A stretch of DNA of 64,000 bases from a virus. Its lineage: Duplodnaviria > Caudoviricetes. Of the stretch, positions 28,262 through 47,237 are shown in pieces; the first letter of the stretch is position 1, and every line of letters begins with the position of its first letter. Made by a program: the position numbers and the translations under genes. The notes beneath the pieces were generated by a model that searched no databases, had not been told where the DNA came from, and saw nothing but the letters and a program-made list of their open reading frames with translations. Where the stretch lies: positions 1 to 64,000 of IMG/VR virus record IMGVR_UViG_3300005439_000018. One strand, written 5' to 3'.

Positions 28262-28774
28262 ATGGCAGAAAAACCCGTACTGGCGTGGCTGGCCGCGCTG
28301 ATCGACGGTGAGGGGTCCGTGATGCTGAACAAGCGGACCTACTCGGGCAATACTGCCTCGACCATGGAGCGCGGGGGCATCCATTACCGGGCCGTGGTGG
28401 TGGTGGCGTGCAACACGGACTACAGGCTGATGGAGGCCATCGGCGACCGGATGGGCGTCGGCCAGATCTACCAGCACCGGATCAACGGGGACCCGAGAAC
28501 CCCGCGCAAGCGGGCGCAGTGGACGTACAGGCTTAACGCCGGACAGATCAGGGAGTGGCTTCCCGAGATCCGTCCGTGGCTGGTTCTCAAAGGAGAACAG
28601 GCCGACCTGCTCATGGAGTCGCTGGACATCAAGACCCAGCTGACACCGGGCAACGCGGGTTTCCTACCGGCGAACCGGCCGCCTCTGCTGGAGCGGCTCG
28701 ACGCCATCTACACCGAGATTCGCCGCCTGAACACCAGGGGGCGCGAGACACAGGAAGCGGGTGATGCCAAGTGA
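28262..28774 (+). CDS. LAGLIDADG homing endonuclease
   Basis: LAWLAALIDGEGSV motif, PWLVLKGEQA; lower GC3; stop overlaps the purZ GTG. Confidence 0.9.
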   Translation: MAEKPVLAWLAALIDGEGSVMLNKRTYSGNTASTMERGGIHYRAVVVVACNTDYRLMEAIGDRMGVGQIYQHRINGDPRTPRKRAQWTYRLNAGQIREWLPEIRPWLVLKGEQADLLMESLDIKTQLTPGNAGFLPANRPPLLERLDAIYTEIRRLNTRGRETQEAGDAK

Positions 28775-29899
28775 GCGGGAAGGTCTACGTTGTTGTGGGT
28801 GGACAGTACGGCTCCGAATTACGAGGGCAAGGGAGCTGTGGCAGGTAGAATCTGCCGAGACCTGGCCGAGCGCGGGCAGCAGGTGATCGGGGTCCGGATC
28901 GGCGGGCCCAACGCGGGGCACACGGTGCTGGGCCGCTGCCCGGCCGACTGCGGCGACGCGGGCGCCCACGGCGCCGGGCCCCGTCCGGCCCACCCGTGGC
29001 GGCTGCGGCAGGTCCCGGTGTCGGTGGTGACGGCGCCGGGGTCGTGGGCCGTGATCGCGGCCGGGTCCGAGGTCGACCAGCGGGTGCTGGAGCGGGAGAT
29101 CGTCGAGCTGGACAGCGCCGGGTACAACGCCTCCGGGCGTCTGGCCGTCGACCGGTCGGCGACCATCCTGCACGACGGGAACATCCTGGAGGAGCAGGCT
29201 CTGGAGCTCCAGGCCAGCATCGGCTCGACGGCCAAGGGCATCGGGTCGGCGCGGGCCGCCCGCATCTGGCGGATGGCCAGCACCTGGGGCCAGGCCACCG
29301 GCGGCGGGTGGGACACGGCGGCCGAGCTGCGGGCCCGGCTGTATGAGGACGACGTGGCCGTGGTCGTCGAGGGCACCCAGGGGTACGGGCTGGGGCTGCA
29401 CACCGAGAACTACCCCCGGGTCACCAGCGGCGACTGCCGGGCCGTGGACTTCCTGGCCCAGGCCGGGGTCAGCCCCTGGCAGCAGGGGGTCGGCCTGCGG
29501 GTGCTGGTCTGCCTGCGCCCCTACCCGATACGGGTCGCGGGCAACAGCGGGCCGATGAAGGACGAGACCACCTGGGAGGCGCTGGGGCTGCCCGCCGAGC
29601 ACACCACCGTCACCCAGAAGGTCCGGCGGGTCGGCGCCTGGGATCCCGAGCTCGCCCGGGCCGCGATGCTGGCCAACGGGGGCCCGAGCAGGGGGGTGGT
29701 GTGGGCCGCGCTGACCATGATGGACAGCGTCGACCCGGAGCTGGCCGGGGCCGACGGGCACGTTCCGGCGTGGTCCGAGTCGACCGCCCCCAAGTGCACC
29801 CGGGACTACCTGCACTCGTTCGGCTGGAACGCCGGGCACCTGGCCTACGTCGGCACCGGCCCCGACACCGCGCTCGTGAACGAGAGGATCTACCGCTGA
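28771..29899 (+). CDS. purZ: PurZ/PurZ0-type aminodeoxyadenylosuccinate synthase, interrupted by a 7-nt insertion (candidate recoding)
   Basis: VVGGQYGS|EGKG (Ser at the PurA Asp position) split across two frames at 28816-28825; GGPNAGHT, IGSTAKGIG, EGTQGYGL, YPRVTS, RPYPIRVAGNSGP, TTVTQKVRRVG, GTGP. Confidence 0.88.
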
Positions 29900-43712: not shown

Positions 43713-44186
43713 GTGACCGGATCCGCCGACGCCGCAGGTGGCGATAACCTCAACGCCACCCGCCGCGACCGCATGTCCAAGGGCTGGCCGTCGGACGTGG
43801 GGTCGGCCAAGGACGACCCGTCGGCGGCCCAGGGCGTCAACCAGTGGCCGGGAGCCAACCGGACGACCAACAGGCAGCCCAGCGCTCTGGAGTACCAGAC
43901 CTATGAGACGGTCCCCGGCCAGCAGCAGCACGTCACCCACGACAACCGCGTCGTGGGCTATGTCCAGAAGTACGCAGACCCCGGCCACGGGCCCCTGTGG
44001 TCGGGCGTCCTGCACCCCGACGTGCACGCCCTCAACCCTACCCACTCCGCCAATCAGCGCGGTTTCGTCCACGCGGCCGACGCCGCCCACTGGGTTATGG
44101 ACCGCCACCGCGACGTGGCCCAGATCGAGAACGTCGGCAACTGGCGCCCCGCCCCGGGCGGGGGACCGAATCTTCCGGGACATTGA
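43713..44186 (+). CDS. Hypothetical protein
   Basis: Possible leaderless GTG after TACCCT. Confidence 0.62.
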   Translation: MTGSADAAGGDNLNATRRDRMSKGWPSDVGSAKDDPSAAQGVNQWPGANRTTNRQPSALEYQTYETVPGQQQHVTHDNRVVGYVQKYADPGHGPLWSGVLHPDVHALNPTHSANQRGFVHAADAAHWVMDRHRDVAQIENVGNWRPAPGGGPNLPGH

Positions 44187-44187
44187 C

Positions 44188-44400
44188 GTGGACCACCCCG
44201 ACGGCTTCCTGACCGCCGAGCAGTTCTACCGGTCGATCGAGGCGGTGGAGCGCCAGCCAACGAACCCCGCACAGTACCTGATGCTGCCCGACTGGTTTCC
44301 CGCCGCCCAGCGCGACTTTGCCGACGAATGGGCGAAGCAGCACGGCTGGGCGGGGGTGGCGTACCACACCCGGACCAAGAGAGGCCGCCCCTGTGTCTGA
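44188..44400 (+). CDS. Hypothetical protein
   Basis: High GC3. Confidence 0.55.
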   Translation: MDHPDGFLTAEQFYRSIEAVERQPTNPAQYLMLPDWFPAAQRDFADEWAKQHGWAGVAYHTRTKRGRPCV

Positions 44401-44815
44401 GAGTCCAGAGGAGAGGCGCCGGAAGGCCCGCGACCGCCAGCGAGATAAGCGGTCTACCCCGGAAGGCCGCCGTGCTTGGAATGATCGACATAATGAGCGC
44501 ACTCGTGAGGCACGCCGCAAGTTGCGCCTGTTGGTTCTGGATTACTATGGTGGGGCGTGTGCGTGCTGCGGCGAGAGTCGAGAGCCGTTTCTGGTCATCG
44601 ACCACATGGACGGTGGCGGAAACGACCACCGCGAGGAGATCAAGCCGTCTGCCACGCACGGCAGGGGCGGCGGTGGAGCGCACATGTATAAGTGGCTCGT
44701 GGCGAACGACTTCCCGCCCGGGTTTCAAGTGCTGTGCGCAAACTGCAACATGGCCAAGGATCGTCCGGGCGGATGCCCGCATACCTGGAAGGAGGACCAA
44801 CACCACTATGACTGA
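44393..44815 (+). CDS. HNH homing endonuclease
   Basis: YGGACACCGE...L.IDH..G.G..HR...QVLCANCN.AK; lower GC. Confidence 0.85.
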   Translation: MSESPEERRRKARDRQRDKRSTPEGRRAWNDRHNERTREARRKLRLLVLDYYGGACACCGESREPFLVIDHMDGGGNDHREEIKPSATHGRGGGGAHMYKWLVANDFPPGFQVLCANCNMAKDRPGGCPHTWKEDQHHYD

Positions 44816-45004
44816 CAAGGGCAAGAGCGGCGAAGGGCACAAGAGCCCCGGGCCGATGCACTCGAAGGCGCAGTGGCGACAATAGGCTTCCTGTTCGCCA
44901 CCAAGAAGCCGTTCGCCCACAAGTGGGCCGAACAGGTCGTGGCCGAGCGCGGGCCCAAGACCGGCTACCGCAGCCTTCCCGAGCGCAAGGGCGCACACAG
45001 GTGA
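44808..45004 (+). pseudogene. Small conserved phage gene split by an 8-nt insertion (pseudogene or recoded)
   Basis: HSKAQWR | FLFATKKPFAHKWAE in two frames around CGACAATAGGC (44877-44887); the distal frame ends in a GTGA overlap with the next gene. Confidence 0.65.
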
Positions 45005-45540
45005 CCCTCCCACTGTCCGGATCCATCGGCCTAGTCAACGTCAAGGGCCTGGTCGGCGACCTCATAACCGTCGGCGAGCGCCTCGACGGCAGCTCCGCCG
45101 CCGCCGCAGCGTACGACCATGCTTTCGTGCTGGTGTCCGACAACGCCCCCGAGCGCGGGGGATCCTCCGTCATCCAGGCCGAGCCTGGGGGCGCGAAGCT
45201 GTCCCCGTTGTCCCAGTACAGCGGCCGGGAGGTCTTGTGGCTCCCGTGCCCCCCGGAGAACTCCCGGGCCGTCGTACAGGCCGCCGTCTCCTACACGGGC
45301 ATCCCCTACGCCTACGCGGACTATTTCGCGATCGCCGCCCACCGCCTCGGGTTCAACCCCCGCCGACTGATAGCCCAGATCACCGTGTCCCGGCACATGA
45401 TCTGCAGTCAGCTGGCGACCGCCGCAGCCACCAAGGGCGACTGGGTCCTGTTCCCGAGCAACCCGTGGACCGGCTACATCACCCCGGCGATGCTGGCTGC
45501 CCTCGACGTGCCGGGCAAGTTCACCGAGGTGCTGCCGTGA
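45001..45540 (+). CDS. Permuted papain-like (NlpC/P60, YiiX-type) amidase
   Basis: YDHAFV...IQAEPGG, G.PY, MICSQLA. Confidence 0.8.
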   Translation: MTLPLSGSIGLVNVKGLVGDLITVGERLDGSSAAAAAYDHAFVLVSDNAPERGGSSVIQAEPGGAKLSPLSQYSGREVLWLPCPPENSRAVVQAAVSYTGIPYAYADYFAIAAHRLGFNPRRLIAQITVSRHMICSQLATAAATKGDWVLFPSNPWTGYITPAMLAALDVPGKFTEVLP

Positions 45541-47237
45541 CCGGGCAGGGGGGTGGTGTGGGCGCTGCTGGCGCGGCCCCCGGGCCGGGGGACCGGCCTG
45601 CCGACCGGCTGCACTACCTGGAGGGCCAGACCTCCGAGACCTTTGACCCGCTGGAGTACATCAAGAGCAAGAACCTGGTATGGAAGGACCAGAGCCTGCT
45701 GGCCAGCCCCGACCCCGAGGGCACCCTGTGGCGCACGGCCCAGACCAAGCTCGACCCGATGCTGTTCGCCCTGGTGTACCTGCGCCACCACCTGCGGGCT
45801 CCGGCCACCCGGAACCAGATCACGTTCTGTGACGCCCACCTGGATTGGTGCCGGGAGGCGCTGGGGTGGGTGGTGCCCCCCACCGGCCCCCGGGAGAACC
45901 GGGATGTCTACGTGGCCCCCCGCGAGCTGGGCAAGTCCACGTGGTTCTTTCTGGTCCTGCCCCTGTGGGCCGCCGCTCACGGCCACAAGCGGTTCATCGC
46001 GGCATTCGCCGACGCCGGTACCCAGGCCGAGATGCACCTGTCGACGTTCAAGAACGAGCTCGAGAACAACACGCTGCTACAGCGGGACTTCCCGGACCTG
46101 TGCGAACCGGCGACCCGGTACCGTGGCGCCACCCAGTCCGACACCAAGGGCCTGACAATCCGCAAGAGCGGGTTCGTGTTCGGCGCGCGCGGCGCCGACT
46201 CCAAGACCCTGGGCATGAAGGTCGGCGAACGCCGCCCCGACATGCTGATCCTGGACGACATCGAGCCCGGTGAGGACCAGTACAGCGAATACCAGGTCGC
46301 GGGGCGCCTCACCACCATCACCGACGTCATCTTCCCGCTGTCCGAATACGCACAGGTGGTGCTGGCGGGCACCGTGACCCTGCCCGGGTCGATCGTCCAC
46401 CAGCTGGTCAAGTCCGTGACCGAGCCGGAGGAGGACCACCCGGAGTGGATCGAAGAGCAGAACATGCGGGTGCACTACTACCCGCCGATCATTCAGAACG
46501 AGGACGGCACCGAGCGCTCGATCTGGCCCGCCAAATGGCCCATCGAGTACCTCAACGCCATCCGGCACACCCGCAGCTTCCTCAAGAACTTCGCCAACAG
46601 CCCGCTGGGTCTGGACGGCGACTACTGGACCAAGGACGACTTCGTCTACGGCGAGCTCACCGGAAAGACCCGGGTGATGCTGTCGATCGACCCGGCCGAC
46701 AAGACCAAGAAGACCAGCGACTGGACCGGGATGGCCGTCGTGGGCTGGACACCACCCCTCGCCCCGGCCGACCCGCGCAAGAAGGCGATCGACGTCGGCG
46801 ATCTCCAGGCCGCGATCAACGGCGGTCTGGGTATGTGCGAGGTGATGTACGCCCGTGCTGTCAAGCTGGTCGGCGAGAACCTGCGGGCCGAGGTGCTGCG
46901 CGTCCTGGAGATGTTCCCGGAGATCGGGCTGGTGCTTATCGAGGTCAACAAGGGCGGCGAGCACTGGCTCGACATCCTGCACCACCTGCCCTGCAAGATC
47001 CAGATGATCGACCAGGTTACCGACAAGCGGACCCGGGCGTCCCACGCGCTGGCGCACTACCAGCGGGGGAGGGTGGTGCACAGCAAGCGCCACGGCACGG
47101 CCGAGGAGCAGATGGTCAGCTTCCCGCGCGGGCCTAACGACGACCTGGTGGACGCCGTCGGCTCGGCGGTCACCCGCCTGCTCAAGCGGAAGGCCCCGAC
47201 GGGGATCCGGGGCCAGAACGTGGGCACATACGCGTGA
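45537..47237 (+). CDS. terL: Terminase large subunit
   Basis: APRELGKST, ILDDIE, GT, SIDPA, DWTG, IEVNKGG, FPRGPNDDLVDA. Confidence 0.93.
   Translation: MTGQGGGVGAAGAAPGPGDRPADRLHYLEGQTSETFDPLEYIKSKNLVWKDQSLLASPDPEGTLWRTAQTKLDPMLFALVYLRHHLRAPATRNQITFCDAHLDWCREALGWVVPPTGPRENRDVYVAPRELGKSTWFFLVLPLWAAAHGHKRFIAAFADAGTQAEMHLSTFKNELENNTLLQRDFPDLCEPATRYRGATQSDTKGLTIRKSGFVFGARGADSKTLGMKVGERRPDMLILDDIEPGEDQYSEYQVAGRLTTITDVIFPLSEYAQVVLAGTVTLPGSIVHQLVKSVTEPEEDHPEWIEEQNMRVHYYPPIIQNEDGTERSIWPAKWPIEYLNAIRHTRSFLKNFANSPLGLDGDYWTKDDFVYGELTGKTRVMLSIDPADKTKKTSDWTGMAVVGWTPPLAPADPRKKAIDVGDLQAAINGGLGMCEVMYARAVKLVGENLRAEVLRVLEMFPEIGLVLIEVNKGGEHWLDILHHLPCKIQMIDQVTDKRTRASHALAHYQRGRVVHSKRHGTAEEQMVSFPRGPNDDLVDAVGSAVTRLLKRKAPTGIRGQNVGTYA

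Follow-up and report, generated by a model that had tools for sequence, protein, structure and literature searches.

An 8-nt insert behind an HNH endonuclease gene interrupts a conserved small gene of an actinophage-like genome and may be crossed by a short ribosomal hop

This report concerns a conserved small phage gene that is interrupted by a micro-insert, the association of this insert with endonuclease genes, and the ways in which the interrupted gene might still be decoded. The stretch of DNA analysed (the window) consists of the first 64,000 nucleotides of IMGVR_UViG_3300005439_000018, a 77,296-bp virus record with direct terminal repeats which was obtained by metagenome assembly and belongs to a genome with a GC content of 69.5%. 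On its plus strand, an intact gene for a free-standing HNH endonuclease of 140 amino acids (aa; 44393..44815) is followed by a 62-codon small gene of the phrog_1375 family, which is cut after Gln-Trp-Arg by 8 nt. The small gene begins at ATG 44808, within the end of the HNH gene (TGA 44813-44815), and reads MTDKGKSGEGHKSPGPMHSKAQWRQ; this N-terminal part (N-part, 44808..44885, plus strand) comprises 25 codons ending in SPGPMHSKAQWRQ and closes with CAG TGG CGA CAA TAG, the stop lying at 44883-44885. The micro-insert CAATAGGC occupies 44880..44887 on the same strand. From 44888 onward the gene continues in the -1 frame as TTC CTG TTC GCC, and this C-terminal part (C-part, 44888..45004, plus strand) consists of 38 codons reading FLFATKKPFAHKWAEQ...ERKGAHR up to TGA 45002-45004, which overlaps the GTG start of a conserved 179-aa downstream gene (45001..45540, plus strand) in a GTGA junction. 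The preliminary description of this DNA had recognised the two frames, the TAG, the 8-nt gap, the single 62-aa open reading frame (ORF) obtained by its deletion and the GTGA overlap, and had placed the start of the small gene over the end of the HNH gene; the sequence bears out this arrangement in full.

That one gene is interrupted here, rather than two genes abutting, follows from its homologs. Profile positions 23-59 of 70 in phrog_1375, a family of unknown function, are matched by the C-part (5e-9), and without the insert the small gene is colinear with the family's full-length members. Uninterrupted homologs, among them proteins of the Gordonia phages Pons and MScarn and of the Mycobacterium phage Vaticameos, those of eight related viral contigs reached via the terminase and about 40 proteins in a large protein collection, read ...S-K-x-Q-W-R-(F/W)-x-(F/Y)-A-T-K... 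without a break, and the eight residues invariant in the family stand on both sides of it (S, Q and W before; A, W, G, L and P after). The closest endonuclease-less relative, locus L092, encodes an uninterrupted 62-aa protein at 79% DNA identity, and the gap against it and against seven relatives found through the large terminase (TerL) is exactly 8 nt. The placement of the insert is ambiguous by 2 nt, since CAATAGGC at 44880-44887 is equivalent to ACAATAGG at 44879-44886, and 44878-44885 can also be chosen. The insert contains the in-frame TAG at 44883-44885, and its GC content is 37%, against 69.5% in the genome. Searches of Pfam with the small gene, with its halves and with intact homologs returned nothing, even at E=10, and a lead to DUF3008 from a protein atlas (score 0.85) was not confirmed by Pfam. 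AlphaFold predicts, with modest confidence (mean pLDDT 63, about 80 around the site), a structure for an intact homolog in which the break falls inside the first of two helices (residues 22-30); if the prediction is right, in-frame inserts of two or three residues should disturb the protein as well. For genome annotation the consequence is that pipelines overlook the N-part, call the C-part wrongly and shorten the HNH gene.

An assembly or sequencing artefact, which the origin of the genome from a metagenome assembly might suggest and which had been named as the finding that would undo the split reading, is extremely improbable. The same break is present on a separate 50-kb JGI contig (L073), with 0 mismatches over 5,294 nt, and the same C-part ORF and the same HNH gene were called on the Logan assembly of SRR5456976; the break is thus not an assembly error. 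Moreover, eight other alleles interrupt the same codon in independent samples.

The upstream gene has a GTG start at 44393 and its product matches phrog_2255 at 2.1e-8 as well as eleven further HNH or endonuclease-VII PHROGs, while the Pfam HNH model gave no match to it. Its motifs CxxC...DH...N...CxxC are common to the homologs in L020, L021, L070 and L072, which are 73-85% identical to the HNH protein of the window, and all five HNH proteins in loci with an insert are intact. The catalytic motif with its Cys pairs, the patchy distribution and the intact ORF characterise it as an HNH homing endonuclease.

Alleles were gathered from every locus that could be reached with the small gene. Nine distinct alleles of 5-10 nt were found, all of them between TGG CGA and a resume codon that is TTC, TTT or TGG. 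Five lie directly downstream of an HNH gene: CAATAGGC in the window (+8), CATTAGC in L072 (+7, with the contig ending just after), CATTAACCGT in L070/71 (+10), and the two in-frame alleles CATAGT in L021 (+6) and AGACAACGC in L020 (+9). Three lie directly downstream of an Endonuclease_7 gene, namely ATAGA in L008 (+5), CAACCGA in L083 (+7) and CAACCGC in L084/85 (+7). The ninth, CAACCGC in L091 (+7), has no endonuclease upstream. By composition, one group shares the form CGA-CAA-C-CGN (L083, L084/85 and L091), and a second comprises CAA-TAG-GC, CAT-TAG-C, CAT-AGT, A-TAG-A and, with TAA, CAT-TAA-C-CGT. The insert length is 3n+1 in five alleles, 3n+2 in two and 3n in two, so 7/9 break the frame. 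For L070, a compensating frameshift upstream of the insert was considered and dropped, because an ATG at L070:2913 brings the N-part there into frame, just as in the remaining loci.

Eight of the nine insert alleles thus stand directly behind an HNH gene or an unrelated Endonuclease-VII gene. The latter (PF02945, 1e-12) occupies the HNH position in L008, L083 and L084/85, its products being 55-69% identical to one another, and between them and the HNH proteins no homology is detectable beyond the catalytic core. Nine related loci with neither nuclease upstream are uninterrupted (L005/L011, L006, L007, L009, L010, L013, L016/17, L019 and L092). The association was tested only on loci found without reference to the insert, that is, by homology to TerL, to the small gene or to the endonucleases, with the window, L020, L021, L070/71, L072, L008 and L083 as the endonuclease-bearing ones. 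The insert is present in 7/7 of these and in 0/8 endonuclease-less loci (Fisher p=1.6e-4), L092 being the ninth uninterrupted locus, added later. The preliminary description had proposed that the endonuclease travels with a short, relatively AT-rich insert and had called for a comparison with homologs lacking the HNH gene; both the counts and the base composition agree with this proposal, and no endonuclease-less relative from the TerL or small-gene searches carries an insert at this codon; the endonuclease-free L091 holds a different, 7-nt allele. This exception, IMGVR_UViG_3300005532_000007, is an 88-kb phage in which CGA-CAAC-CGC is found about 16.8 kb into the record, and neither an HNH nor an Endonuclease-VII homolog occurs anywhere in that record. 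Its small gene is preceded by a strong ribosome-binding site and lies in a different neighbourhood, among tail-like genes.

Searches of viral contigs with the HNH protein, alone or as an alignment, gave no relatives. Among 48 metagenome relatives of the HNH protein (32-63% identity) the small gene was found beside one only, L023, without an insert. There (L023:1096-1472), an HNH gene whose product is 63% identical precedes a distant small-gene homolog that reads QWR-LFFA instead of QWR-FLFA, which may represent protection by substitution.

The N-part is flanked by the endonuclease gene on one side and the insert on the other and must therefore travel as part of the cassette; the HNH-bearing alleles carry two C-terminal tail types, both of which also occur among endonuclease-less genes, so the cassette has entered different genomes. 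Upstream of the HNH gene lies a 70-aa gene (44188..44400, plus strand), as called on the identical JGI contig, whose homologs lie immediately before the small gene in the endonuclease-less L007 and before the HNH gene in L020; as its stop codon falls within the beginning of the HNH gene, the 70-aa gene delimits the endonuclease insertion at its 5' end. L092 lacks this gene. The long ORF 43738-44400 (within 43713-44400) is not one gene, the calls on the JGI contig dividing it into a 157-aa gene (43713-44186) and the 70-aa gene (44188-44400). Taken together, the 8 nt are very probably an inherited target-site micro-insert linked to a homing-endonuclease cassette.

The insert lies within an inverted repeat that can fold as an RNA hairpin (44873..44901, plus strand), with outer arms GTGGCGA (44873-44879) and TCGCCAC (44895-44901) and an inner stem in which ATAGG (44882-44886) pairs with CCTGT (44890-44894); the predicted fold of 44850-44960 reaches -52.8 kcal/mol (z=-3.4). 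The outer repeat, GTGGCGA-N7-TCGCCAC, is encoded by the conserved QWR...AT codons, and the same arms occur with a spacer of 7-8 nt in the uninterrupted L007, L017 and L019, so that the insert roughly doubles their spacing. CGA completes the repeat, and, though it makes up only 4.7% of the Arg codons of the phage, it is the Arg codon used in 9/9 insert alleles and in 4/8 uninterrupted relatives (p=3e-4). The repeat may therefore be, or contain, the recognition site of the nuclease. An insert placed right after this codon, about 70 nt into the gene, alters the spacing of the arms, and the altered spacing would make an endonuclease-bearing genome immune to its own nuclease. Given its linkage to the endonuclease genes, the insert is probably the self-protection mark of the endonuclease.

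Whether the small gene is still expressed as one protein is a separate matter, on which selection is informative. Between the window and the intact gene of L092, the proportion of synonymous differences (pS) is 0.47 and the ratio of the nonsynonymous proportion to it (pN/pS) is 0.20 (p=4.5e-6); for the C-part against L092, pN/pS is 0.16 (p=6e-5), and the C-part is 89% identical to that of L005. The N-parts of the window and L072, which both stop one codon after CGA and whose HNH proteins are only 75% identical, show 0 amino-acid changes in 15 codons, with four codons differing synonymously and a fifth by a Ser switch between AGC and TCC. No second lesion was found in either half of any of the nine alleles. 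Judged by these comparisons, both halves are intact and under purifying selection.

These data bear directly on the possibility of a tolerated knock-out, in which the insert is a protective or repair scar at the cut site, spread by homing, and the small gene is recently broken or dispensable. Several features fit such a scar: the share of frame-breaking alleles (7/9) is near the 2/3 that would arise if frame were not selected, the lengths of the window-type alleles vary in every lineage, and a cognate landing codon is missing from the window allele. Most inserts, furthermore, consist of a few filler bases and a 2-3-nt repeat of the preceding bases (CGA..CGA, CG..CG). Filler with a short repeat is a typical product of imprecise end-joining, and actinobacteria possess Ku and LigD. 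The selection signal in the C-part could also predate the invasion. The absence of a second lesion in either half of any allele speaks against a dead gene, as does the number of nonsynonymous changes, estimated at about 30 had the gene been dead since the split from L092 and observed at about 11. The cassette-bound N-part, moreover, is unchanged in amino acids between the two stop-sharing alleles although their HNH proteins differ by 25%, a 7-nt allele is conserved and is kept even in an endonuclease-free phage, and the family is intact in about 40 other phages. On balance we deem a knock-out unlikely, while still giving it appreciable weight.

A programmed -1 ribosomal frameshift joining the two frames would suit the window and L008, in both of which the C-part lies in the -1 frame. 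However, no slippery site of the X XXY YYZ type is present between the conserved QWR codons and the stop, five alleles would need a +1 shift instead, and two or three extra residues would enter the conserved helix, which makes this explanation very improbable for the window. The insert lengths fall in all three classes modulo 3, which excludes any one fixed frameshift; only a mechanism independent of length fits all alleles. Of the decoding options listed in the preliminary description (a -1 shift, another mechanism, or none), the fixed -1 shift is accordingly lost as a general mechanism, and a hop and the absence of decoding both stand.

The gene might instead function in two pieces, as a 25-aa N-peptide and a C-part translated by termination-reinitiation at GTG 44873, which lies in the C-part frame, 15 nt upstream of the C-part and 10 nt before the TAG. 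A GTG in that frame is present in both 3n+2 alleles (window and L008), the window has GAAGG 4 nt upstream of it, and selection acts on both halves; function-keeping splits by homing endonucleases are also known, from T4 gp39/gp60 and Aeh1 NrdA (10.1101/2022.08.31.505936). Against this, the only candidate starts in the C-part frame of the 3n+1 alleles are ATT or lie far off, in L008 no stop is found close to the GTG, the break is predicted to fall inside the first helix and is flanked by invariant residues, and the model leaves the conserved CAAC filler unexplained. We regard a gene in two pieces as improbable.

The codons around the insert would suit ribosomal bypassing. The CGA-CAA-C-CGN form in L083, L084/85 and L091 retains 6/7 bases of the insert, although the synonymous sites on its flanks differ by 52-75% and the Endonuclease-VII proteins linked to it in L083 and L084 share only 63% identity; the C-parts in these backgrounds have pN/pS of 0.16-0.43 (p 3e-6 to 8e-3), and the chance that a neutral block of 6 nt would survive unchanged in three lineages of this kind is roughly estimated at 1e-4. 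In this form, the take-off codon CGA and the landing codon CGN match and stand one rare codon and one base apart, in the geometry of a +7 hop. All nine alleles end the N-part with CGA, and the codon that follows it is always rare (CAA, 4.0% of Gln codons; CAT, 12%; AGA, 2%; ATA, 5%). In every allele the resume codon is preceded by NG(C/T/A), which is a fully cognate CGN in 5/9 alleles, being CGT, CGC or CGA in L070, L020, L083, L084 and L091.

In the window allele, CGA is followed directly by CAA and, one codon on, by the stop TAG, and standard decoding would end the protein after 25 residues. In the hop that we propose, the peptidyl-tRNA-Arg, paired weakly with the rare CGA through an I:A wobble, would detach as first the rare CAA and then TAG stand in the A site; after a slip of the mRNA by 8 nt, translation would resume at TTC 44888. 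The window allele would then be a drifted relative of the better-formed 7-nt CGA-CAA-C-CGN. A hop launched from the codon ahead of the stop (CAA or CAT) was discarded, since no codon that matches it lies in frame further downstream.

Several observations weigh against such a hop. The preliminary description had noted that the window allele lacks a matched take-off and landing pair, and this is indeed the case: the first base of the landing codon GGC does not fit tRNA-Arg, and the same is true of AGC in L072, AGT in L021 and AGA in L008; only the second and third bases of these codons fit, and they may be the remnant of the original Arg codon. In T4 gene 60, landing-codon mismatches sharply lower bypassing. 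With a landing codon that is only near-cognate, the hop would probably be inefficient, and because the CAA after CGA is a sense codon, normal decoding would compete with take-off. The alleles nearest to that of the window (+5, +6, +7, +8 and +10) vary in length by lineage, as under unconstrained drift. Neither a conserved stimulatory hairpin nor a conserved Shine-Dalgarno element was found among the alleles. The outer stem of the window hairpin derives from coding sequence and exists without the insert, and it is absent in L070, L020 and L084, so the hairpin is not shared by all alleles; a take-off hairpin like that of gene 60 was set aside as doubtful on these grounds. Finally, the two tail types suggest that the C-parts may derive from genomes invaded only recently, in which case their selection signal could partly predate the insert. 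Weighing these points against the codon and selection patterns, we consider decoding of the window allele by a short hop from CGA to TTC a real possibility, held with less than even confidence. Our preferred explanation of the locus as a whole, a micro-insert of an endonuclease cassette that is most likely restored by a short hop, is put forward tentatively and with confidence only slightly nearer to even.

The same genome contains a second break of this kind, which the preliminary description had already set in parallel as the purZ/LAGLIDADG pair, and the parallel is real. Within 28262-28860, directly behind a LAGLIDADG gene, purZ is broken in its P-loop by 7 nt, reading TCC GAA TTA C GAG GGC, where nuclease-less relatives encode GSEGKG uninterrupted; a TTA is present in the break at 28816-28826. 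GAA-TTA-C-GAG has the same +7 geometry as CGA-CAA-C-CGN. LAGLIDADG-linked purZ carries another 7-nt insert with an in-frame TTA in L079/L080, and no insert in L081, which has a Glu-to-Val substitution, or in L082, which is unchanged. No tRNA encoded in the window reads CGA, CAA or TTA, so that the phage supplies none for the rare codons at the two breaks; the four tRNA genes present are Asp-gtc (13355), Pro-cgg (24808), Met-cat (39000) and Asn-gtt (39746). It is conceivable, if doubtful, that the nine alleles form a natural family of coding gaps of 5-10 nt, introduced and diversified by homing-endonuclease cassettes, which are hopped from a weak CGA with a tolerated first-base mismatch, that purZ holds a second such cassette, and that short hops generally allow selfish nucleases in high-GC actinophages to destroy their target sites within conserved genes while the genes stay functional.

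As to the remaining surroundings, the large terminase gene lies at 45537-47237 (phrog_38, 1e-58), and the order of small gene, 179-aa gene and terminase is kept in all relatives. A DNA similarity search against GenBank phages gave no match. A third endonuclease gene (Endonuclease_7, 1.7e-18) is found at 221-697 on the minus strand, its neighbour, a glycosyltransferase gene at 721-1845, appears intact, and no broken frame was found beside the endonuclease gene.

Natural translational bypassing is known in very few systems, namely T4 gene 60 and its homologs, the mitochondria of Magnusiomyces and, as a proposal, the terminase of phiHau3. The locus adds a compact, testable series, with nine natural alleles at one codon, matched, mismatched and, in two cases, in frame, with two endonuclease families and one endonuclease loss. 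If hopping is true, the series would define the minimal sequence needs of short hops and would show how selfish nucleases break their own recognition sites inside conserved genes without killing them; if there is no hopping, the locus would show that homing cassettes can spread while repeatedly knocking out a widely conserved phage gene.

Among known systems, SegF, SegG and MobE of T4 reportedly perform intronless homing with protective polymorphisms at the target site. The locus resembles them in having a free-standing endonuclease beside a conserved target gene and a carrier protected by site differences, but the protection here would be a frame-breaking insertion and not substitutions. In layout, the locus also resembles MobA and the bypass cassette of gene 60 in T4, where the insert blocks nicking by MobA and travels with the nuclease, which is sometimes swapped for an unrelated one and is sometimes outlived by the insert (Manning & Atkins, 10.1101/2022.08.31.505936). 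In the loci studied here, a free-standing HNH-type endonuclease likewise adjoins the target gene and is absent from close relatives (nine loci), an insert near the target site co-occurs with the endonuclease and is absent from endonuclease-less relatives except L091, an unrelated endonuclease can take the same place, and the insert is kept after endonuclease loss in L091 (compare 10.1101/2022.08.31.505936). In the window, the rare CAA opens the gap and the TAG lies one codon on, which may correspond to the stop or hungry codon after the take-off codon in such cassettes. The likeness rests on layout and not on sequence homology. The gap is 5-10 nt and variable between lineages here, against 50 nt in gene 60; 2/9 alleles are in frame; the window allele, with CGA and GGC, lacks matched take-off and landing codons; neither a conserved take-off stem-loop nor a nascent-peptide signal is shown among these alleles; and the endonuclease gene precedes the target gene and, unlike MobA, does not split it.

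Gaps of similar size, 7 and 10 nt and led by UUA, have been described in the large terminase genes of the Streptomyces phage phiHau3 and of two prophages, with mass-spectrometric support for bypassing in E. coli (Antonov et al. 2023, PMC10732093). As at our locus, a short frame-breaking block of 7-10 nt interrupts a gene of a high-GC actinophage, the flanks are contiguous in homologs and the proposed hop leads to a landing codon beside the resume codon. The differences are that UUA plays no part here, no TTA being present in 44870-44890, where CGA and CAA serve as the rare codons and TAG comes after them; that the landing codon is non-cognate; and that the main text of PMC10732093 mentions no endonuclease. 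The purZ break GAA-TTA-C-GAG is a closer match to phiHau3 than the break in the small gene. Short hops and hungry-codon bypassing in E. coli reporters (Weiss et al. 1987; Gallant & Lindsley), as they are cited in PMC10732093, include documented cases of +5, +6 and longer, in which slow decoding of the A-site codon lets the peptidyl-tRNA pair anew a few nucleotides further on. As represented there, those hops are synthetic or low-level and use matched codons, whereas the site at our locus would be natural and inherited, and the codons of the window allele are mismatched. Because the small-gene break has neither matched codons nor UUA, we do not count the locus as a member of the MobA/gene 60 or phiHau3 systems; by analogy, it is best seen as a putative short-gap variant of both bypass systems, resembling a MobA/gene 60 cassette in miniature as well as the gaps of phiHau3.

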